64,000 nt of DNA, from NCBI RefSeq assembly GCF_003334335.1, contig NZ_QOWQ01000015.1. The stretch is one strand, 5' to 3'. Numbering within the stretch: the stretch's first letter is position 1; each line of letters starts with the position of its first letter. The translations under genes and the position numbers were made by a program. This document shows positions 3,935-47,812 of this stretch, in pieces. The notes under the pieces are model-generated. The model saw only the letters and a program-made list of their open reading frames with translations. It did no database searches and was not told the DNA's origin. Origin of the DNA: Escherichia coli (GTDB lineage Bacteria; Pseudomonadota; Gammaproteobacteria; Enterobacterales; Enterobacteriaceae).

Positions 3935-5308
3935 TTAACTCCGCTTATACAGCGGCAACCAAATCACCAGCCGTAAACCGCCCAGCGGGCTGTCTTCTGC
4001 CTTCACCCAGCCACGATGCTGCTGAATGGCGGTTTCAACAATCGCCAGCCCCAAACCTGTACCGCCAGATTCACGATCGCGTGCTTCATCGGTACGATAG
4101 AACGGACGGAAAATCTGTTCGCGATCTTCCGGGCTAACGCCAGGACCATCGTCGTCCACCGTAATGGTGATACCGTCTTTATCTACCGCAAAGCCCACTT
4201 CAATCTTCGTATGGGAATAACGCAGAGCATTACGAACAATGTTTTCCAGCGCACTTTCCAGGGCGTTCGGATTGCCGTACAGCGGCCACGGCCCAGGCGG
4301 GAAGTTAACTGTCAACGACTTGCCCATTTGCTCGGCTTCGAACGCCGCGTTATCCAGCACTTCACTCCACAACTGGTTGGCTTTGATGGTTTCGCTAACC
4401 AGCGCGTTTTTTTGCTGATTACGTGACATCACCAACAGATCGTTGATCATGCTGTCCAGACGTTGCGCTTCGGTTTCAATACGCTCCAGTTCCTTGCTTT
4501 CACCGCTACGACGGCGCAGTAACGCCGTACCCAGTTGCAGACGCGTCAGCGGGGTGCGCAGCTCGTGAGAGATATCAGAAAGCAGACGCTGCTGAGAGGT
4601 CATCATGCGCTCCAGCGCGGTGACCATCTGGTTAAAACTGGCACCTGCGGCAAGGAATTCCTGTGGCCCCGCTTCCAGTTCCGGGTGCTGGCGTAAGTTT
4701 CCCTGGGCAACTTCATCGGCAGCGTTTTTCAGCTTACGCGCCGGTTTTGCCAGACTCCAGGCCAACCACAACAGCAGCGGCGTACTGACCAACATGGTGA
4801 CAATCAGCAGTAATAGCGGGCGGTCAAACAGTAAGTTAATGAAATCGGATTGAGAACTGCTGGCCGGACGAATCAGATAAAGTTGGTAATTATCTTCGCC
4901 ATCACGCACGGAGAACGGACCGACCAGTTCCACGCGGCCATACTTTTTCTTCTGCGGATGATCGGCGTTATCGGCCTGACCAATAAAGTTACGAATGATC
5001 TGCATTTCGCTGCGTTCAGCGCCGATCACGCGGCCTTCGGTGGTCACCAATAACAAACGCTGTCCTGGCGGTGCCCACTTATCAATCGCCCGGAACAGAC
5101 GCCGCCACCACATTAAATCGTTGGGCGGATCGTTCGCCAGCTCCGCTTCGACATGCTGCTCAATCATCAGCCCCTGACGCTGTTCGCTATCCAGAAGCTC
5201 GGTCATCTGGCGTGAATCGAGCTTGGGTAACATCAAAACCAACATCAACACCAGCGCCAGCGTCAGCCAGAAGATGGCGAAGATGCGCGCGGTTAAGCTG
5301 CCTATCAT
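3935..5308 (-). CDS. cpxA: Envelope-stress sensor histidine kinase CpxA
   Basis: ORF track 457 aa, MIGSLTARIFAIFWLTLALVLM..; HisKA H-box region SDISHELRTPLTRL visible; overlaps cpxR stop by 4 nt. Confidence 0.95.
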   Translation of the reverse strand: MIGSLTARIFAIFWLTLALVLMLVLMLPKLDSRQMTELLDSEQRQGLMIEQHVEAELANDPPNDLMWWRRLFRAIDKWAPPGQRLLLVTTEGRVIGAERSEMQIIRNFIGQADNADHPQKKKYGRVELVGPFSVRDGEDNYQLYLIRPASSSQSDFINLLFDRPLLLLIVTMLVSTPLLLWLAWSLAKPARKLKNAADEVAQGNLRQHPELEAGPQEFLAAGASFNQMVTALERMMTSQQRLLSDISHELRTPLTRLQLGTALLRRRSGESKELERIETEAQRLDSMINDLLVMSRNQQKNALVSETIKANQLWSEVLDNAAFEAEQMGKSLTVNFPPGPWPLYGNPNALESALENIVRNALRYSHTKIEVGFAVDKDGITITVDDDGPGVSPEDREQIFRPFYRTDEARDRESGGTGLGLAIVETAIQQHRGWVKAEDSPLGGLRLVIWLPLYKRS

Positions 5309-39378: not shown

Positions 39379-40041
39379 TTAGAGATGAGTAGTGCCAAAT
39401 GCGGCATTCCAGTCGTGTTCGAACTTCTCTATAGCTGACTCTACCGCAGGGGTGTTGAGCATTTGTTGCGCTACATCTAAGGGCAGGGTGATGGATTCAC
39501 ATCCTGCCAGTAAACAGTCCAGCGCCTGACGCGGCGTTTTAAAGCTGGCTGCCAGCACCATGCTTTCTGGCGCGTGCATTTCTAACAGCGTTTGCAGCTC
39601 CTGAACCGTACGAATGCCGTCTCCGCCCTGGGCATCTACGCGGTTAACATACGGAGCAACGTATTTTGCCCCTGCCAGTGCGGCTAATAACCCTTGTGCG
39701 GCGCTATATACAGCAGTGCCAAGTGTAGTAATACCCTCTTTTTTCAGTATTTTAATTGCTGCCAGACCTTCGGAAGTCACCGGGATTTTCACCACAATAC
39801 CCGGAATAGCGTCGCGCAGGCGCTTCGCTTCTTCCACCATCCCCTGCGCGTCGCGGCTCATGGTCTGAGCAAACAGAATGCCCTCATCACCAATCGCTTT
39901 TTGCAGACGCGGCAGCACTTCCCATATGGACTCCTTGCTGGCAGCGATAATGCTCGGGTTAGTTGTCACCCCGGCAATGGGGAATATGCGTGCCAGACGT
40001 TCGACTTCTGCGACGTTAGCGGTGTCCAGATACAGTTCCAT
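39379..40041 (-). CDS. fsaB: Fructose-6-phosphate aldolase 2
   Basis: ORF track 220 aa [30 protein letters not shown].. (transaldolase-like fold). Confidence 0.93.
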
Positions 40042-40052
40042 GATGTTTCCTT

Positions 40053-42554
40053 TTACAGTTCCAGTTCATGTTGCAGCAGGCTGGCGATAGCGTCGGCAGA
40101 GGCGGCGTTAACCAGCGCGTTACGGAATTCTTCGTGCATGATGCGGCGAGCGAGGCGCGAGAAAATGCGCATATGCTGATCGCCCGCAGCGTGTTTGTTC
40201 AGGGTTAACATAATGATGAATTGCGCTTCATCATCGCCCCAGCGCACCGGCGCTTGCAGACGCGCCACGCTGATGGTGGATTGCTCAATGTGTTCTGATT
40301 TGCTGTGTGGAATGGCAAAACTAAAGCCCAGACCGGTAGAGAAAACGGCCTCGCGCGCCCACAAGTCGGCTTCCAGTTTACGCGGATAGCGGCAGCGGCC
40401 CGCCAGCAGCAGGTTATCGGTCATGCCTTTGAGCACTTCTTCTTTGCTGCGCCAGTCGCTTTCCAGTGTGATGCACTCGGCGGTGACCAGCGGTGCGTCT
40501 TGTTGGGTCATGCGGAATTGCGCCAGCAGGTGTTCCACTTCCAGCGAAGTACGGCAGGCCATTGCCTGGTTGAGCAACTTGCGGCACTCACGGCTATCAA
40601 GTTGCGCCATCCGAGCTTTCGCCGCCGGAATTGATGGTGCGCTCATGCTGAGTTCATCCAGCCCTAAGCCGACCAGCAACGGCAGCACGGAACCTTTCGC
40701 TCCCAGCTCACCGCACAGACCAATCCATTTGCCCTGGCGATGCACCGCTTGCACGGCGTAATCGAGCGCCCGCAAGAATGCCGGATTCAGGCTGTTGTAG
40801 TGACGAGTAACCTTAGCGTTATCGCGATCCACCGCCAGCAGATACTGCGTCAGGTCATTACTACCAATACTAAAGAAATCAATCTCTTCGCAGCATTGAT
40901 CGATGATGAACATCACCGACGGCACTTCCAGCATGATGCCGAGCTGGATTTTCTCATCAAACGGAATGTGTTCGTTACGTAGTTGCTGTTTGGCTTCCGC
41001 CAGTTTTTCTTTCACCCATAAGATCTCTTCCATTGAGGAGATCATCGGGATCATGATTTTCAGGCTGCCGTGAGCGGAGGCGCGGAGGATCGACCGTAGC
41101 TGCGTGGTAAACAACGACGCGTACTCTTCATAAATACGCACGGCGCGATAACCGAGGAACGGGTTTGCCTCTGCGGGAATGTTCAGATAATCAACGGGTT
41201 TGTCGCCGCCAATGTCCATAGTGCGCACAATAATGCTGCGTCCGTTGGCGGATTCCAGCGCCTGACAAAAAATGTTGTACAACTCGCTTTCGCCCGGTGC
41301 GCTGGTGCGATCCATATAGAGCATTTCAGTGCGGAACAAACCAACGCCTTCCGCACCATTGCCGAATGCGGCCTGCGCTTCCACGGAGTGAGCGATGTTA
41401 GCGGCAATTTCAATGCGGATACCGTCAGCGGTACGGGCTTGTTGGGTCAGCCAGACACGCTGTTGCTCACGCAGGGCGTCCTGTACGCGGGCTTCTTGCT
41501 GATAATAACGAGCTACGGCTTCCCCTGGCTCAACCACAATCGCCCCGGCGTTGCCGTCGATATAAATCGTTTGTTGCTGCCACGGAGTAAGGGCATCAAT
41601 ATCCACACCAACCAGCGTTGGAATGTTGAACGAACGGGCAAGGATCACCGTATGTGAGGTGGTGCCGCCGCTTTTGAGCAACAATCCTTTGAGGTGATTT
41701 TTATCCAGTTCGAGGAACTGGCTGGGGGTCAGTTCATCAGCCATACAAATGGCGGGCTGCGTCAGTTTGCCCGGTGCCGGGAAGCGTTGCTCACCGTAGA
41801 TTTGCTGGAGTAACTGGAAGCAGACGTCGCGTACGTCCAGGGCACGTTCTTGCAGGTAGCTGCTGCTGGAACGGGAAAACTCTTCGCAAAAGTGATTCGC
41901 GCTGGCAACAATTGCTTCGGCGCAGCTTAATCCGGCGCTGACGCCTGCCAGTAAATGTTCGCGCAGGGAAGTATCGCCAGCCAGGGATCGGTGAGCTTCC
42001 AGAATCGCGCTGGTAGCACCGTCGCTATCCAGCAGACGAAACTCAATGTTTTTCAGTACCAGCGTCAGGCCGTTTTCCAGTGCGGATTGCTCGGCGTCAA
42101 CGCCTTTGGCTGCGGGAAGATTACCCAGCGCATTGAGATCTAAAGAAGAGATCGGCGTCAGAATGCCGCCTGCACTACCGCTGCACACGGTGCGGGCGCG
42201 GATAATTTGCGGATTCAGATTGGTCAGTGAAACCGGCAGTGGTTCCAGTTCGTCAGATTTAACTTCCGCCAGCGGCGCATCGCAGTGGGGGAATTCATCG
42301 CGCAGCCATTGGCTTAAACGCTGGTGCGCTTCCTGTTCGTCGGCCCCGGAAATCAGTAACTGGCAGTTATCGCCCGCCAGCGTATCGGTGCCAATCAGCG
42401 CAAGGGCGCTTTTGGCGTTGCCCTTGCGGTCAGTGCACAGGTTATGCCACTCAATTTGTGATGAAAAAGTATTACACAGCGTTTCAACGTGGCTTGCCGG
42501 ACGCGCATGTACGCCGTTAGGTAGCTCACAAATAAATTCCACAATCAGGGCCAT
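40053..42554 (-). CDS. ptsA: Multiphosphoryl-transfer PTS protein (HPr-like + enzyme I-like + EIIA-Fru-like fusion)
   Basis: ORF track 833 aa [26 protein letters not shown].. (HPr His-region at N-terminus), central PEP-utilising enzyme I region, C-terminal EIIA-like. Confidence 0.92.
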
Positions 42555-42862
42555 TGCCTCTCTCCCGGTACGGTTTTCTGTTTACAGGATAAGAGCGCAC
42601 GGCAACGGCCTGCCATGTGACAAATCTGCCAAAAGCTGGACAAATGTAATGTAACCGTCAATTTGCGACGCGTCTCACAAGACGCTGTTTTGCGGCATGC
42701 TTCCGGTTTATCGCAAGTTATGAGGCGGATCGCATTTTTGTACTGATATTACAAAAGTCCAGTAAATGGCCTTTTTATCCACTGTTTGCTCCGCCTGCGA
42801 TTGCCTATTGTTTCCTCCATCAAAAATATGGACATGGGCTTTCGCAAGCCCGGGAGCAGCTT

Positions 42863-43942
42863 ATGAATGAGTTGGTGCAGATCCTGAAAAATACCCGTCA
42901 GCATTTAATGACGGGCGTTTCACACATGATTCCCTTCGTGGTATCGGGCGGTATTTTGCTGGCGGTTTCCGTCATGTTGTATGGCAAAGGCGCAGTGCCG
43001 GATGCCGTAGCCGATCCAAATCTGAAAAAACTGTTTGATATCGGCGTTGCGGGCTTGACGCTGATGGTGCCTTTCCTCGCAGCGTACATCGGTTATTCCA
43101 TTGCAGAGCGTTCTGCGCTGGCTCCGTGCGCTATCGGTGCCTGGGTTGGTAACAGCTTTGGTGCGGGCTTCTTTGGTGCACTGATCGCCGGGATTATCGG
43201 CGGCATCGTGGTGCATTACCTGAAGAAAATTCCGGTGCATAAAGTTCTGCGCTCGGTGATGCCTATCTTCATTATTCCTATCGTCGGCACACTGATTACC
43301 GCAGGCATCATGATGTGGGGCTTGGGCGAGCCTGTAGGGGCGTTGACCAACAGCCTGACTCAGTGGCTTCAGGGGATGCAGCAGGGCAGCATTGTTATGC
43401 TGGCGGTGATCATGGGTCTGATGCTGGCGTTCGATATGGGCGGTCCGGTTAACAAAGTGGCCTATGCCTTCATGCTGATTTGCGTTGCTCAGGGTGTTTA
43501 TACCGTGGTGGCCATCGCTGCCGTGGGTATTTGTATCCCGCCGCTGGGGATGGGGCTGGCGACGCTGATTGGTCGTAAAAATTTCTCCGCAGAAGAGCGC
43601 GAAACCGGCAAAGCGGCACTGGTGATGGGCTGTGTTGGCGTTACTGAAGGGGCGATTCCTTTCGCCGCTGCCGATCCGCTGCGTGTCATTCCTTCCATCA
43701 TGGTCGGTTCAGTTTGTGGTGCAGTAACTGCGGCGCTGGTCGGTGCGCAGTGCTATGCAGGCTGGGGTGGTCTGATTGTGCTGCCGGTGGTTGAAGGCAA
43801 GCTGGGTTATATCGCAGCAGTGGCTGTCGGAGCAGTGGTGACGGCTGTTTGTGTGAACGTGCTGAAAAGTCTGGCGCGTAAAAATGGGTCTTCGACTGAT
43901 GAAAAAGAAGACGACCTGGATTTGGATTTTGAAATTAATTAA
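42863..43942 (+). CDS. frwC: Fructose-like PTS permease EIIC component
   Basis: ORF track 359 aa polytopic membrane protein MNELVQILKNTRQHLMTGVSHMIPFVVSGG.. Confidence 0.92.
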   Translation: MNELVQILKNTRQHLMTGVSHMIPFVVSGGILLAVSVMLYGKGAVPDAVADPNLKKLFDIGVAGLTLMVPFLAAYIGYSIAERSALAPCAIGAWVGNSFGAGFFGALIAGIIGGIVVHYLKKIPVHKVLRSVMPIFIIPIVGTLITAGIMMWGLGEPVGALTNSLTQWLQGMQQGSIVMLAVIMGLMLAFDMGGPVNKVAYAFMLICVAQGVYTVVAIAAVGICIPPLGMGLATLIGRKNFSAEERETGKAALVMGCVGVTEGAIPFAAADPLRVIPSIMVGSVCGAVTAALVGAQCYAGWGGLIVLPVVEGKLGYIAAVAVGAVVTAVCVNVLKSLARKNGSSTDEKEDDLDLDFEIN

Positions 43943-43956
43943 TTGAGGAACGAGCC

Positions 43957-44277
43957 ATGACGAAAATTATTGCAGTAACCGCATGTCCTTCAGGTGTTGC
44001 CCATACCTATATGGCAGCAGAGGCGCTGGAAAGTGCCGCGAAAGCGAAAGGCTGGGAAGTGAAAGTAGAAACCCAGGGGTCAATTGGTCTGGAAAATGAA
44101 CTGACTGCGGAAGATGTGGCGAGCGCTGATATGGTGATTCTGACCAAAGATATCGGCATCAAGTTTGAAGAGCGTTTTGCTGGCAAGACCATCGTGCGCG
44201 TCAACATCAGCGATGCAGTAAAACGTGCTGACGCCATTATGAGCAAAATTGAAGCTCACCTGGCGCAAACCGCTTAA
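43957..44277 (+). CDS. frwB: Fructose-like PTS EIIB component
   Basis: ORF track 106 aa MTKIIAVTACPSGVAHTYMAAEALE.. (active-site Cys in TACPSG). Confidence 0.92.
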   Translation: MTKIIAVTACPSGVAHTYMAAEALESAAKAKGWEVKVETQGSIGLENELTAEDVASADMVILTKDIGIKFEERFAGKTIVRVNISDAVKRADAIMSKIEAHLAQTA

Positions 44278-44327
44278 GTTCTTCTCCCGCTCGCAAGGGC
44301 GGGTTCGCTTTCCCACAGGAGTTCCTC

Positions 44328-46625
44328 ATGACGAATCGTATCTCTCGCCTCAAAACTGCACTGTTTGCCAATACCCGTGAAATCTCGCTGGAGCGGGCGC
44401 TGCTTTATACCGCCAGCCATCGGCAAACCGAAGGCGAACCGGTGATATTGCGCCGGGCGAAAGCAACAGCGTATATCCTTGAACATGTTGAAATTTCGAT
44501 TCGTGATGAAGAACTGATTGCCGGTAACCGCACCGTAAAACCGCGCGCCGGGATTATGTCGCCGGAAATGGACCCTTACTGGCTGCTGAAAGAGCTGGAT
44601 CAATTCCCGACGCGTCCGCAGGACCGCTTTGCTATCAGCGAAGAAGATAAACGTATCTACCGTGAAGAGTTGTTCCCGTACTGGGAAAAACGTTCGATGA
44701 AAGATTTCATCAACGGGCAGATGACAGATGAAGTAAAAGCCGCGACCAACACGCAGATTTTCAGCATCAACCAGACGGATAAAGGCCAGGGGCACATTAT
44801 TATTGATTACCCACGCCTGTTGAATCACGGGCTGGGTGAGCTGGTGGCACAGATGCAGCAACATTGTCAGCAACAGCCGGAGAATCACTTTTATCAGGCC
44901 GCGTTGTTACTGCTGGAAGCCTCGCAGAAACACATTTTGCGTTACGCCGAACTGGCGGAAACGATGGCGGCAAACTGCACAGATGCCCAGCGTCGCGAAG
45001 AGCTGCTGACTATTGCAGAGATCTCCCGCCATAACGCGCAACATAAGCCGCAGACGTTCTGGCAGGCGTGCCAGTTATTCTGGTACATGAACATCATTCT
45101 GCAATACGAATCCAACGCCAGTTCGCTATCGTTGGGGCGCTTCGACCAGTATATGTTGCCGTTCTATCAGACATCATTAACCCAGGGCGAAGATGCGGCG
45201 TTCCTGAAAGAACTGCTCGAATCTTTATGGGTGAAATGCAACGACATCGTGCTGTTGCGCTCCACCAGTAGCGCGCGTTATTTCGCCGGTTTCCCGACCG
45301 GCTATACCGCACTGCTCGGCGGGTTAACCGAGAACGGACGTAGCGCGGTGAACGTGCTTTCGTTCCTTTGCCTTGACGCCTATCAAAGCGTGCAATTACC
45401 GCAACCGAACCTCGGCGTGCGCACTAACGCCTTGATCGACACGCCGTTCCTGATGAAAACCGCCGAAACCATTCGCTTCGGCACCGGTATTCCGCAAATC
45501 TTTAACGATGAAGTGGTGGTGCCAGCGTTCCTCAACCGTGGCGTTTCGCTGGAAGATGCGCGCGACTATTCCGTAGTGGGCTGTGTGGAATTATCTATTC
45601 CCGGCAGAACCTACGGCTTGCATGACATCGCGATGTTTAATCTGCTGAAAGTGATGGAAATCTGCCTGCATGAAAATGAAGGCAATGCTGCGCTGACTTA
45701 TGAAGGTTTACTGGAGCAGATCCGCGCCAAGATCAGCCACTACATCACCCTGATGGTTGAGGGCAGCAATATTTGTGATATCGGCCATCGCGACTGGGCA
45801 CCTGTACCGCTGCTCTCATCGTTTATCAGCGATTGTCTGGAAAAAGGCCGCGATATTACCGATGGCGGCGCGCGTTATAACTTCTCCGGCGTACAGGGGA
45901 TCGGTATCGCCAACCTGAGCGATTCTCTCCATGCGTTGAAAGGGATGGTTTTTGAGCAACAGCGTTTAAGTTTTGACGAATTGCTGTCGGTATTAAAAGC
46001 CAACTTCGCAACGCCAGAAGGCGAAAAAGTCCGCGCTCGCTTAATTAACCGCTTCGAGAAATACGGTAACGATATCGACGAGGTGGATAACATCAGCGCC
46101 GAACTGTTGCGCCACTACTGCAAAGAAGTGGAAAAATACCAGAACCCGCGCGGCGGCTACTTCACGCCGGGATCGTATACCGTTTCTGCTCACGTCCCGT
46201 TGGGATCGGTGGTTGGCGCGACGCCAGACGGTCGTTTTGCCGGAGAACAGCTGGCAGACGGCGGCTTGTCACCCATGCTGGGCCAGGACGCACAAGGGCC
46301 AACAGCGGTACTGAAGTCAGTCAGTAAGCTCGATAACACGCTGCTGTCTAACGGTACGTTGCTGAACGTGAAATTCACTCCGGCGACCCTGGAAGGTGAA
46401 GCAGGATTACGCAAACTGGCCGACTTCTTACGGGCGTTTACCCAGCTTAAGTTACAACATATTCAGTTTAACGTGGTGAACGCCGACACGTTGCGGGAAG
46501 CGCAACAGCGCCCACAAGATTATGCCGGGCTGGTGGTGCGCGTTGCCGGATACAGCGCCTTCTTTGTCGAACTGTCGAAGGAGATCCAGGATGACATCAT
46601 CCGCCGGACAGCGCATCAGCTGTAA
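44328..46625 (+). CDS. pflD: Glycyl-radical enzyme (pyruvate formate-lyase-like), substrate unknown
   Basis: ORF track 765 aa; C-terminal glycyl-radical motif RVAGYSAFF visible. Confidence 0.93.
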   Translation: MTNRISRLKTALFANTREISLERALLYTASHRQTEGEPVILRRAKATAYILEHVEISIRDEELIAGNRTVKPRAGIMSPEMDPYWLLKELDQFPTRPQDRFAISEEDKRIYREELFPYWEKRSMKDFINGQMTDEVKAATNTQIFSINQTDKGQGHIIIDYPRLLNHGLGELVAQMQQHCQQQPENHFYQAALLLLEASQKHILRYAELAETMAANCTDAQRREELLTIAEISRHNAQHKPQTFWQACQLFWYMNIILQYESNASSLSLGRFDQYMLPFYQTSLTQGEDAAFLKELLESLWVKCNDIVLLRSTSSARYFAGFPTGYTALLGGLTENGRSAVNVLSFLCLDAYQSVQLPQPNLGVRTNALIDTPFLMKTAETIRFGTGIPQIFNDEVVVPAFLNRGVSLEDARDYSVVGCVELSIPGRTYGLHDIAMFNLLKVMEICLHENEGNAALTYEGLLEQIRAKISHYITLMVEGSNICDIGHRDWAPVPLLSSFISDCLEKGRDITDGGARYNFSGVQGIGIANLSDSLHALKGMVFEQQRLSFDELLSVLKANFATPEGEKVRARLINRFEKYGNDIDEVDNISAELLRHYCKEVEKYQNPRGGYFTPGSYTVSAHVPLGSVVGATPDGRFAGEQLADGGLSPMLGQDAQGPTAVLKSVSKLDNTLLSNGTLLNVKFTPATLEGEAGLRKLADFLRAFTQLKLQHIQFNVVNADTLREAQQRPQDYAGLVVRVAGYSAFFVELSKEIQDDIIRRTAHQL

Positions 46626-47469
46626 CGTTGTGGAAACGCGCCGCGATGATGTGGCGCGCATTTTCAACATTCAGCGTTATTCACTGAATGACGGCGAGGG
46701 CATTCGTACGGTGGTCTTTTTTAAAGGCTGTCCGCATCTTTGCCCGTGGTGTGCTAATCCGGAGTCGATCTCCGGCAAAATCCAGACGGTACGCAGAGAG
46801 GCGAAATGTCTGCACTGTGCGAAATGTTTGCGTGATGCGGATGAATGCCCCTCCGGGGCGTTTGAACGGATTGGTCGCGATATCAGCCTTGACGCTCTGG
46901 AACGGGAAGTGATGAAAGATGACATTTTCTTTCGCACGTCCGGCGGCGGCGTCACGCTTTCTGGCGGCGAAGTGTTAATGCAGGCGGAGTTTGCTACCCG
47001 TTTTTTACAGCGACTGCGGCTGTGGGGTGTGTCATGCGCCATTGAAACTGCCGGAGACGCACCAGCCAGCAAGCTATTACCGCTGGCGAAATTGTGCGAT
47101 GAAGTGTTGTTCGATTTAAAAATTATGGACGCGACTCAGGCGCGGGATGTGGTGAAGATGAACCTGCCACGCGTGCTGGAGAATCTGCGTTTGCTGGTGA
47201 GTGAGGGCGTCAACGTGATCCCGCGTTTACCGCTGATCCCTGGTTTCACGCTCAGCCGGGAGAATATGCAGCAGGCGCTGGATGTACTGATCCCGCTGAA
47301 TATCAGGCAGATCCATCTGTTACCGTTTCATCAGTACGGCGAACCGAAATACCGCCTGCTGGGGAAAACATGGTCGATGAAAGAGGTGCCTGCGCCGTCG
47401 TCAGCTGATGTGGCAACGATGCGCGAAATGGCAGAACGGGCCGGACTTCAGGTTACCGTGGGAGGTTAA
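46591..47469 (+). CDS. pflC: Glycyl-radical enzyme activating enzyme (radical SAM)
   Basis: ORF track 46522..47469; start moved to ATG 46591 (MTSSAGQRISCNV..) with ggag SD; CxxxCxxC motif GCPHLCPWC; overlaps pflD 3' end by 35 nt; 292 aa. Confidence 0.9.
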   Translation: MTSSAGQRISCNVVETRRDDVARIFNIQRYSLNDGEGIRTVVFFKGCPHLCPWCANPESISGKIQTVRREAKCLHCAKCLRDADECPSGAFERIGRDISLDALEREVMKDDIFFRTSGGGVTLSGGEVLMQAEFATRFLQRLRLWGVSCAIETAGDAPASKLLPLAKLCDEVLFDLKIMDATQARDVVKMNLPRVLENLRLLVSEGVNVIPRLPLIPGFTLSRENMQQALDVLIPLNIRQIHLLPFHQYGEPKYRLLGKTWSMKEVPAPSSADVATMREMAERAGLQVTVGG

Positions 47470-47470
47470 A

Positions 47471-47812
47471 ATGGCATACCTGGTGGCAGTAACCGCCTGC
47501 GTAAGCGGCGTGGCGCATACTTATATGGCGGCGGAACGGCTGGAAAAGTTGTGCCTGTTAGAGAAGTGGGGAGTCAGCATTGAAACTCAGGGCGCGCTGG
47601 GAACGGAGAATCGTTTAGCGGATGAGGATATCCGCCGGGCGGATGTTGCTCTGTTGATTACGGATATCGAGCTTGCCGGTGCCGAGCGATTTGAACATTG
47701 CCGCTATGTGCAATGCAGCATCTACGCATTCCTGCGTGAGCCGCAGCGGGTAATGAGCGCGGTGCGCAAAGTGCTTTCTGCGCCGCAGCAAACCCATCTT
47801 ATTCTGGAGTAG
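47471..47812 (+). CDS. frwD: Fructose-like PTS EIIB component 2
   Basis: ORF track 47408..47812; start moved to ATG 47471 (MAYLVAVTACVSGVAHTYMAAERLE..), 113 aa; paralog of frwB. Confidence 0.9.
   Translation: MAYLVAVTACVSGVAHTYMAAERLEKLCLLEKWGVSIETQGALGTENRLADEDIRRADVALLITDIELAGAERFEHCRYVQCSIYAFLREPQRVMSAVRKVLSAPQQTHLILE

Follow-up and report, generated by a model that had tools for sequence, protein, structure and literature searches.

Overlapping pflD–pflC and fabR–yijD genes in Escherichia coli: comparative support for a pflC start inside pflD and a plausible case for partial translational coupling

Translational coupling between overlapping genes is described for two kinds of arrangement. 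Among long overlaps, the coat and lysis genes of phages fr and MS2 are coupled across -38 nt and -50 nt, respectively (review PMC12548453), while short overlaps with a -4 (NTGA) or -1 (TGATG or TAATG) motif are coupled by termination-reinitiation (Huber et al. 2019, PMC6728339; PMC10666635). In the phage pairs, as in the pflD–pflC pair of Escherichia coli, the second gene begins tens of nucleotides before the stop of the first, both being on one strand, and structure is predicted in the start region; access to this region is proposed to come from the upstream ribosome as it elongates or terminates (PMC12548453). By comparison with the phage genes, for which experiments showed a dependence on upstream termination, the pflD–pflC pair is known here from sequence alone; it also differs in that pflC has a strong canonical Shine–Dalgarno (SD) sequence and that its predicted hairpins are small and statistically weak. 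With its -35 spacing, it lies well outside the short-overlap class, whereas the fabR–yijD pair has the exact -1 motif of this class, although the motif is not conserved among orthologues. In the same window, the cpxR–cpxA pair displays a -4 motif.

The pflB–pflA and ybiY–ybiW pairs of E. coli likewise encode members of the same enzyme and activase families from adjacent genes. pflA stands apart from pflB, with a promoter of its own, and PflA, unlike PflC, carries no N-terminal extension. The ybiY–ybiW pair does not share the pflD–pflC arrangement, its gene order being opposite, with the activase first and a 5-nt gap. Approximately 3 kb downstream of yijD, at a junction just outside the window, btuB and murI display a 56-nt co-directional annotated overlap; these genes differ from pflD and pflC in being functionally unrelated, and long same-strand overlaps are thus not exceptional in E. 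coli annotation.

The window, the whole 64,000-nt stretch of DNA that was analysed, derives from the E. coli chromosome, and the pflD–pflC and fabR–yijD features described here lie on its + strand. Open reading frames, PGAP and the K-12 annotation all delimit pflD (44328..46625), coding for a glycyl radical enzyme of 765 aa, and pflC (46591..47469), coding for a radical-SAM activase of 292 aa whose ATG lies inside pflD. The pflD stop (TAA) occupies 46623-46625 and the pflC ATG 46591-46593, i.e., position -32, and pflC is read in the +1 frame relative to pflD; the two genes thus form a co-directional overlapping pair, in which pflC begins before pflD stops, both genes sharing a strand but not a reading frame. 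The resulting 35-nt dual-coding overlap (46591..46625) comprises the last 11 codons and the stop of pflD as well as codons 1-12 of pflC. The SD of pflC, AAGGAG (46578..46583), is contributed by pflD codons 751-752 (Lys-Glu) and is followed by a 7-nt spacer to the ATG, while pflD codon 755 (Asp, GAT; 46590..46592) gives the A and T that constitute the first two bases of this ATG. The original prediction had placed the pflC ATG at 46591, 35 nt inside pflD, preceded by a GGAG SD within pflD coding sequence; direct reading, PGAP and the K-12 annotation confirm the start, and the GGAG is found at 46580-46583 as part of the longer AAGGAG. Both overlaps are already known and are an ordinary feature, carried by the K-12 MG1655 reference (pflD 4143995-4146292, pflC 4146258-4147136; fabR ends and yijD begins at 4161771) and by the RefSeq PGAP annotation of a 100%-identical strain, where the pflD/pflC and fabR/yijD boundaries are the same.

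The names given to the four genes in the original prediction are correct, as judged by NCBIfam equivalog profiles, whose curated cut-offs are all exceeded. PflD scores 1724.8 bits against NF007437 (cut-off 1109) and harbors the C-terminal RVxG glycyl motif as RVAGYSA, its tail ending in SKEIQDDIIRRTAHQL at the stop; score and motif together place it among the glycyl radical enzymes (NF007437/TIGR01774). pflD and pflC form part of the frw–pflDC operon, and 1,5-anhydromannitol is the reported substrate pathway of PflD. PflC scores 627 bits against NF007483 (cut-off 326), residues 1-292 matching a profile of 292 positions; it contains the CX3CX2C cluster motif (CPHLCPWC), aligns to the PflA structures 3C8F and 3CB8 and thus belongs to the radical-SAM glycyl-radical enzyme activases (NF007483/TIGR02494). 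FabR (NF008402, 414.5 bits) and YijD (NF008278, 203.4 bits) are likewise above cut-off, and YijD homologues carry Pfam PF07226.

Comparison of pflDC loci strongly supports 46591 as the pflC start, with an SD inside pflD, and the conservation of this start exceeds chance. Orthologues display the same overlap geometry as E. coli, and the ATG at -32 is kept in 50 of the 51 gammaproteobacterial loci, which cover Enterobacterales, Orbales, Pasteurellales and Vibrio. Among the 544 conserved degenerate codons of pflD, codon 755 is the only one devoid of synonymous variation (GAT in 46/46 genomes), and all 29 other Asp columns of the 46-genome alignment vary synonymously. Both SD codons, found as AAG in 38 of 40 sequences and as GAG in 42 of 46, rank among the 11 lowest-entropy codons of the 544; the six-codon window formed by codons 751-756 holds five of these 11 (hypergeometric P = 7e-9). 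The predicted anti-SD duplex of AAGGAG, at -8.8 kcal/mol in E. coli, is the best of all in-frame candidate starts, and the ATG at -32 has the best pairing among in-frame candidates, from -7.4 to -9.1 kcal/mol, in most loci. Vibrio hannami has lost this ATG, codon 755 being GAC, and uses an ATG at -8 instead; Vibrio lineages have either shifted to the ATG at -8 or added it. At the position of codon 755, Firmicutes homologues have GAT, GAC or AAT. On this comparative evidence the internal codon is a genuine initiation codon: the conservation of start and SD identifies 46591 as the start and is equally compatible with independent initiation. The fixed 35-nt distance brings no independent information, because the PflD C-terminus, conserved to the last residue in 46 orthologues, fixes it.

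As long overlaps are often annotation artefacts, real overlaps staying below 30 bp in more than 80% of cases (review PMC12548453), the annotated start could be wrong and the true one be GTG 46630 or GTG 46651, two in-frame codons located 5 and 26 nt past the pflD stop, with no overlap at all; the poorly conserved first 18 residues of PflC, outside the conserved core, would fit such a mis-call. However, neither GTG is conserved, their SDs are poor (+0.9 and -3.3 kcal/mol, respectively), 16 orthologues have no in-frame start between the ATG at -32 and the conserved PflC core, the +1 frame is open through variable-length linkers in all loci, and it is the codon bearing the ATG that is uniquely invariant. 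A downstream start is in effect already refuted by these comparative data, and its probability is close to negligible. The upstream ATG 46522 (-101) was rejected as well, being neither conserved nor provided with a good SD; several orthologues, including the Vibrio loci, have an in-frame stop at -80, downstream of its position. The TRAINSPOTTER supplements yielded no match for the pflC and yijD start sites, and a full-text literature search on the pflC start codon returned nothing relevant.

In Firmicutes homologues, the activase starts 13-24 nt after the upstream stop, with no overlap; the internal pflC start is thus a gammaproteobacterial trait. It adds a variable N-terminal extension of ~18 residues to gammaproteobacterial PflC, and the alignment of PflC residue 21 to PflA residue 3 leaves approximately residues 1-18 outside the radical-SAM core. 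Residues 2-13 change with the wobble bases of pflD (MTSSAGQRISC, MTLFAGPHINC or MILSVARHTGC), and the extension/linker is variable in sequence, with insertions of up to ~24 aa. The first ~18 residues are probably a by-product, the variable translation of a former spacer rather than a functional domain. That the extension is itself functional, for instance as a PflD-docking peptide, so that the overlap would be kept for the peptide and not for translation control, finds some echo in its presence in all gammaproteobacterial PflC, and in the frequency of Thr2, pflD codon 756 being GAC in 43/46 sequences; this is nevertheless very improbable, since residues 2-13 follow the pflD wobble changes, the subsequent linker varies in both sequence and length, and neither the Firmicutes homologues nor PflA possess the extension. 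A PflD–PflC fusion generated by +1 frameshifting in the overlap was also considered and rejected: inspection reveals no slippery or hungry-codon motif, and the Arg codons of the overlap vary freely (CGC, CGG, CGT, AGA).

At the second junction, fabR, encoding a TetR-family repressor (61577..62227 with the PGAP start; ATG 61523 is the K-12 reference start), ends with a TAA (62225-62227) whose last base is the first of the ATG (62227-62229) of yijD (62227..62586), which encodes a DUF1422 inner-membrane protein of 119 aa. The resulting TAATG (62225..62229), a 1-nt overlap at -1 spacing, is as originally predicted, by direct reading and by annotation, and belongs to one of three commonly enriched stop/start spacings (review PMC12548453). 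The yijD SD, GAAGGA (62215..62220), is embedded in the 3' end of fabR and separated from the ATG by 6 nt. The yijD ribosome-binding block GTGAAGGA(C/T)GA(G/A)(T/C)(A/G)ATG is near-identical in Klebsiella, Kosakonia, Cronobacter and Salmonella, and the position of the fabR stop moves around it. As the spacing in relatives amounts to -11, -4, -1, +3, +10, +15, +16, +35 or +99 nt, the overlap is incidental; a conserved TAATG is ruled out, and no selection maintaining the motif was found among these orthologues. In 9/9 related loci with upstream context, the neighbor immediately 5' of the DUF1422 gene is nonetheless a co-oriented TetR_C_46 gene. This synteny supports an operon linkage of fabR and yijD; their operon and co-transcription, together with a suggested role of YijD in membrane homeostasis, have already been published (PMC12282094). 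Of the tie proposed between the two genes, the operon linkage thus stands while the TAATG falls, since a stop/start overlap that is not conserved is not what ties them. In promoter and terminator scans, promoter-like sites were no more numerous than in shuffled sequence, a result that speaks neither for nor against an internal yijD promoter. yijD would be the second gene of a conserved fabR–yijD operon and would use a conserved SD and ATG of its own for translation; the fabR stop may simply happen to fall on this ATG in E. coli.

Around the pflC ribosome-binding site, a hairpin is predicted between CUUCUUUG, contributed by the Ala-Phe-Phe-Val codons of pflD, and the SD (46559..46583; -8.5 kcal/mol, z = -1.64); this hypothetical coupling element is part of a 120-nt predicted local fold with z = -3.58 in E. 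coli. A second predicted hairpin, of 5 bp (GGAUG/CAUCC, 46589..46602; -6.2 kcal/mol, z = -2.37), encloses the pflC AUG; its sequence is dictated by Asp-Asp-Ile-Ile codons, and it is kept in 16/16 orthologues only via G-C to G-U replacements, with no compensatory changes. In E. coli, the predicted pairing probability of the SD is 0.98, versus 0.59 when the sequence is recoded synonymously (0.98 is reached by only 2% of controls), and that of the AUG is 0.98 versus 0.79. Against the synonymous-recoding control, significance is confined to E. coli: the orthologue mean for SD pairing is 0.68 versus 0.55 in controls, with 11 of 45 sequences, which are phylogenetically non-independent, below their own control median. 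The consensus fold of the orthologues displays essentially no covariation. As evidence for coupling, these predicted SD and AUG hairpins are weak.

As pflD terminates 32 nt past the pflC start, ribosomes finishing pflD cross the pflC ribosome-binding site and halt beside it. Coupling of enzyme and activase, which the original prediction took the overlap to imply, is plausible on these sequence grounds, most likely in a partial form. pflC is very probably translated from AUG 46591, directed by the SD AAGGAG at 46578-46583, both signals lying within the last pflD codons, and coupling could follow two routes, singly or together: pflD ribosomes may open the small SD and AUG hairpins, or, once pflD has terminated, a ribosome may re-initiate a short way back, as happens in the coat–lysis genes of phages fr and MS2. 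Coupling would tie synthesis of the activase to that of its glycyl radical enzyme. The sequence comparison establishes the coordinates, which codon is the pflC start, selection acting on this start and its SD, and the kept order of the genes, whereas for pflC as for yijD, dependence of translation on the upstream gene is something that we infer; a literature search found no start-site profiling or fusion data on coupling. The joint explanation that we favor, and hold to be probable, combines an SD-directed pflC start and a likely partial coupling with a yijD that is the second gene of its operon, uses its own SD and ATG and overlaps the fabR stop by chance.

The overlap may, however, exist without coupling, a tentative reading that remains a serious contender, in which free 30S subunits initiate pflC and yijD de novo, each at a strong SD of its own, and genome compaction and start-codon drift have produced the overlap. 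An in-frame ATG lying upstream, with a fortuitous Lys-Glu AAGGAG, would have become the start in a gammaproteobacterial ancestor, ATG and SD being selected only because no gene can do without a start. The role of start codon and SD fully explains the synonymous-site constraint, the SD is strong (-8.8 kcal/mol) and would be conserved in an independently initiating gene too, and the Firmicutes homologues work without overlap. The start has moreover drifted, as the ATG at -8 of Vibrio lineages and the loss of the ATG at -32 in V. hannami indicate; the structure evidence is weak and the fabR–yijD spacing drifts freely. On the other hand, the almost fully paired SD and AUG predicted for E. coli (0.98 each) would be unusual for an independent start, tested close or overlapping pairs are generally coupled (review PMC12548453), and pflD ribosomes have to cross the site, so that an interaction of some kind, whether positive or negative, is physically inevitable. 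In a bolder version of coupling, which we consider rather unlikely, the 35-nt overlap would be a selected gammaproteobacterial innovation that fixes a sub-stoichiometric activase:enzyme ratio, ribosomes alternately occluding and unmasking the SD and AUG and re-initiating 32 nt backwards, with the PflC tail as a spacer relic; if true, it would constitute a cellular counterpart of the fr/MS2 coat–lysis mechanism.

The comparative data give solid support to the unusually long pflD–pflC overlap of the reference annotation as genuine rather than the product of a miscalled start codon; the finding has little significance beyond annotation quality. For fabR–yijD, what is of use is that the two genes are conserved as a pair, already noted by others, and not the TAATG. 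Synonymous changes that leave PflD intact, namely GAT to GAC at codon 755 and AAG GAG to AAA GAA at codons 751-752, are usable for coupling tests. Should the favored explanation hold and coupling be true, pflD–pflC would provide a tidy cellular example of coupling across a long overlap, and of how the amount of a radical-SAM activase is matched to that of its glycyl radical enzyme.

The glycyl radical enzyme (GRE) gene pflD (44328-46625) and its radical-SAM activase gene pflC (46591-47469) overlap by 35 nt; the Shine-Dalgarno sequence (SD) of pflC, AAGGAG (46578-46583), is followed by a 7-nt spacer and the ATG at 46591, in the +1 frame relative to pflD, whose stop TAA lies at 46623-46625. At the second junction, TAATG (62225-62229), a single base is common to the stop of fabR, encoding a TetR-family repressor of unsaturated-fatty-acid genes, and the start of yijD (62227-62586), encoding a DUF1422 inner-membrane protein. 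Direct reading of the sequence confirms every coordinate of the original prediction at both junctions. As PGAP and the K-12 MG1655 reference annotation carry identical boundaries for both gene pairs, both overlaps are already in the public record, and both represent familiar types of gene arrangement. The window extends from rhaT to btuB; the 3.2-kb stretch around the predicted feature (46591-46625) matches E. coli strain 300709 at 100% identity and occurs, at 95-100% identity, in 5419 of 5426 complete genomes of the species. All four proteins exceed the curated cut-offs of their NCBIfam equivalog models: PflD (NF007437, 1724.8 bits versus 1109), PflC (NF007483, 627 versus 326, residues 1-292 matching a profile of 292 positions), FabR (NF008402, 414.5 versus 151) and YijD (NF008278, 203.4 versus 127).

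Because a long overlap often reflects a mis-called start codon, and in-frame GTGs occur at 46630 and 46651, just past the pflD stop, 80 loci encoding PflC relatives were retrieved for start comparison. In 50 of 51 gammaproteobacterial pflDC loci with an intact junction, an ATG precedes the GRE stop by exactly 32 nt, counted to its first base; these loci come from Escherichia, Citrobacter, Enterobacter, Klebsiella, Kluyvera, Yersinia, Edwardsiella, Serratia, Hafnia, Rahnella, Gilliamella, Zophobihabitans, Necropsobacter and Vibrio. Among all in-frame candidates this ATG has the best anti-SD pairing, and 16 loci lack any further in-frame start ahead of the conserved PflC core; neither GTG is conserved across loci. 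In a whole-pflD codon alignment of 46 sequences, synonymous variation is zero in exactly one of the 544 columns whose amino acid is conserved and degenerate, namely codon 755, GAT (46590-46592), whose A and T are the opening bases of the pflC ATG; GAT and GAC both occur in each of the other 29 conserved Asp columns. Codons 751 (AAG in 38/40), 752 (GAG in 42/46), 754 and 756 are also within the 11 least variable, and the hypergeometric probability of five of these 11 falling inside one given six-codon window is 7e-9. The conserved ATG, the invariant codon 755 and the SD codons thus bear out initiation at ATG 46591.

The sole exception is Vibrio hannami, where codon 755 reads GAC; this species carries an ATG 8 nt upstream of the stop instead and must use that one. 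This second in-frame ATG (11-nt overlap) results from a PflD C-terminus ending in HEL, as observed in Edwardsiella hoshinae (locus L022) and the Vibrio loci L045, L047, L049 and L052. Other Vibrio loci contain both ATGs, the upstream one devoid of an SD, and together with the V. hannami codon change this indicates that the start shifted within that lineage, as would be expected if the GAT constraint exists only where the upstream ATG is in use. In Firmicutes homologues, the GRE ends at the same C-terminal residue (...IQDDII.R.EH.L), the equivalent of the codon 755 Asp is GAT, GAC or AAT, and the activase starts 13-24 nt past the GRE stop, 28-32 residues ahead of the CX3CX2C motif, compared with 45-63 residues in gammaproteobacterial PflC. 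PflC residue 21 aligns to residue 3 of crystallised PflA; the extra ~18 residues are variable, with insertions of up to ~24 residues, and residues 2-13 track the wobble positions of pflD, so that what is conserved is the place of initiation and not the peptide.

The original prediction took the pflC overlap to imply translational coupling. The comparative data establish the pflC start and its SD but not coupling, since selection acts on every start codon with its SD; it is also the invariant PflD C-terminus that keeps the distance constant at 35 nt. In E. coli, the SD is predicted to pair with CUUCUUUG in the Ala-Phe-Phe-Val codons of pflD (-8.5 kcal/mol), a second 5-bp hairpin is predicted around the pflC AUG (-6.2 kcal/mol) and the 120-nt junction region folds with z = -3.58. 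The SD pairing probability is 0.98 versus 0.59 in synonymous pflD recodings, a value reached by only 2% of controls; over 45 orthologues, mean SD pairing is 0.68 versus 0.55, with 11 below their own control median, and the consensus fold of the junction displays almost no covariation. Unfolding of the pflC SD and AUG by ribosomes translating pflD is a plausible but tentative model. For pflC, a literature search turned up neither start-site profiling nor N-terminomics or fusion data. Enriched overlap spacings are -4, -1 and -8, and more than 80% of gene overlaps are shorter than 30 bp; coupling across long overlaps has been established by experiment for pairs that include the coat-lysis genes of phages fr (-38) and MS2 (-50) (PMC12548453). 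These phage pairs are the nearest mechanistic analogues of pflD-pflC, for which coupling is hypothetical.

For fabR-yijD, scanning all 1.84 billion representative proteins yields only 102 YijD-family clusters. In 9/9 related loci with upstream context, the DUF1422 gene directly follows a co-oriented TetR_N/TetR_C_46 gene (FabR), which is usually located between sthA and trmA. The distance from fabR stop to yijD start is -11 in locus L089, -4 in Klebsiella, -1 in E. coli and locus L087, +3 in Kosakonia, +10 in Cronobacter, +15 in Salmonella, and +16, +35 and +99 in loci L086, L085 and L091. In Enterobacteriaceae, the fabR stop shifts around a near-invariant block, GTGAAGGA(C/T)GA(G/A)(T/C)(A/G)ATG, constituting yijD's own SD and ATG; conservation thus concerns the pairing of the two genes and the ribosome-binding site of yijD, and TAATG is an accident, specific to E. 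coli, of the point at which FabR terminates. The fabR start differs between records, being ATG 61523 (234 aa) in the K-12 reference and GTG 61577 (216 aa), immediately followed by ATG 61580, in PGAP; the NCBIfam FabR profile (211 positions) matches from residue 1 of the shorter form onward, and a promoter-like site (61499-61527) overlaps the start of the long one. A 13-bp GC-rich hairpin (62593-62622) between convergent yijD and trmA is probably a bidirectional terminator or REP-like element.

The genes frwC-frwB-pflD-pflC-frwD are tightly packed (gaps +14, +50, -35, +1), frwD starting at ATG 47471, one base past the pflC stop (TAA 47467-47469), with its SD GGGAGG (47460-47465) within the final pflC codons. 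The minus-strand cpxR/cpxA pair (5305-5308) has an ATGA overlap, the -4 motif of the textbook short class; convergent 3' ends overlap by 14 nt in frwD/yijO (47799-47812) and 18 nt in oxyR/sthA (59723-59740). The annotated co-directional btuB/murI overlap of 56 nt, just past the 3' end of the window (41462-41517 of retrieved locus L001), exceeds that of pflD-pflC. A 130-aa PGAP 'hypothetical protein' (53649-54041, minus strand) overlapping the argE 5' end by 13 nt is probably spurious: it lies in the ppc-argE intergenic region, where the K-12 reference annotates no gene.

The product of pflD is annotated as 'formate C-acetyltransferase'. According to Ma et al., as cited by a 2025 review (PMC12441222), after PTS uptake PflD cleaves 1,5-anhydromannitol-6-phosphate, and YbiW 1,5-anhydroglucitol-6-phosphate, to 1-deoxyfructose-6-phosphate; the PflD role agrees with the presence of frw PTS genes and fsaB on its flanks, so the product name looks outdated. 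The ybiY-ybiW genes adjoin fsaA (locus L082, K-12 860174-864304), and frw-pflDC adjoins fsaB and ptsA (window ~39380-47812); these two E. coli anhydro-hexitol GRE loci look like paralogous neighbourhoods, with opposite orders of activase and enzyme genes. The original interpretation is supported in part: the pflC start and the operon links stand, with coupling a hypothesis. The one modestly new result is the evidence, at codon level, for a genuine long pflD-pflC overlap that is a conserved gammaproteobacterial trait.
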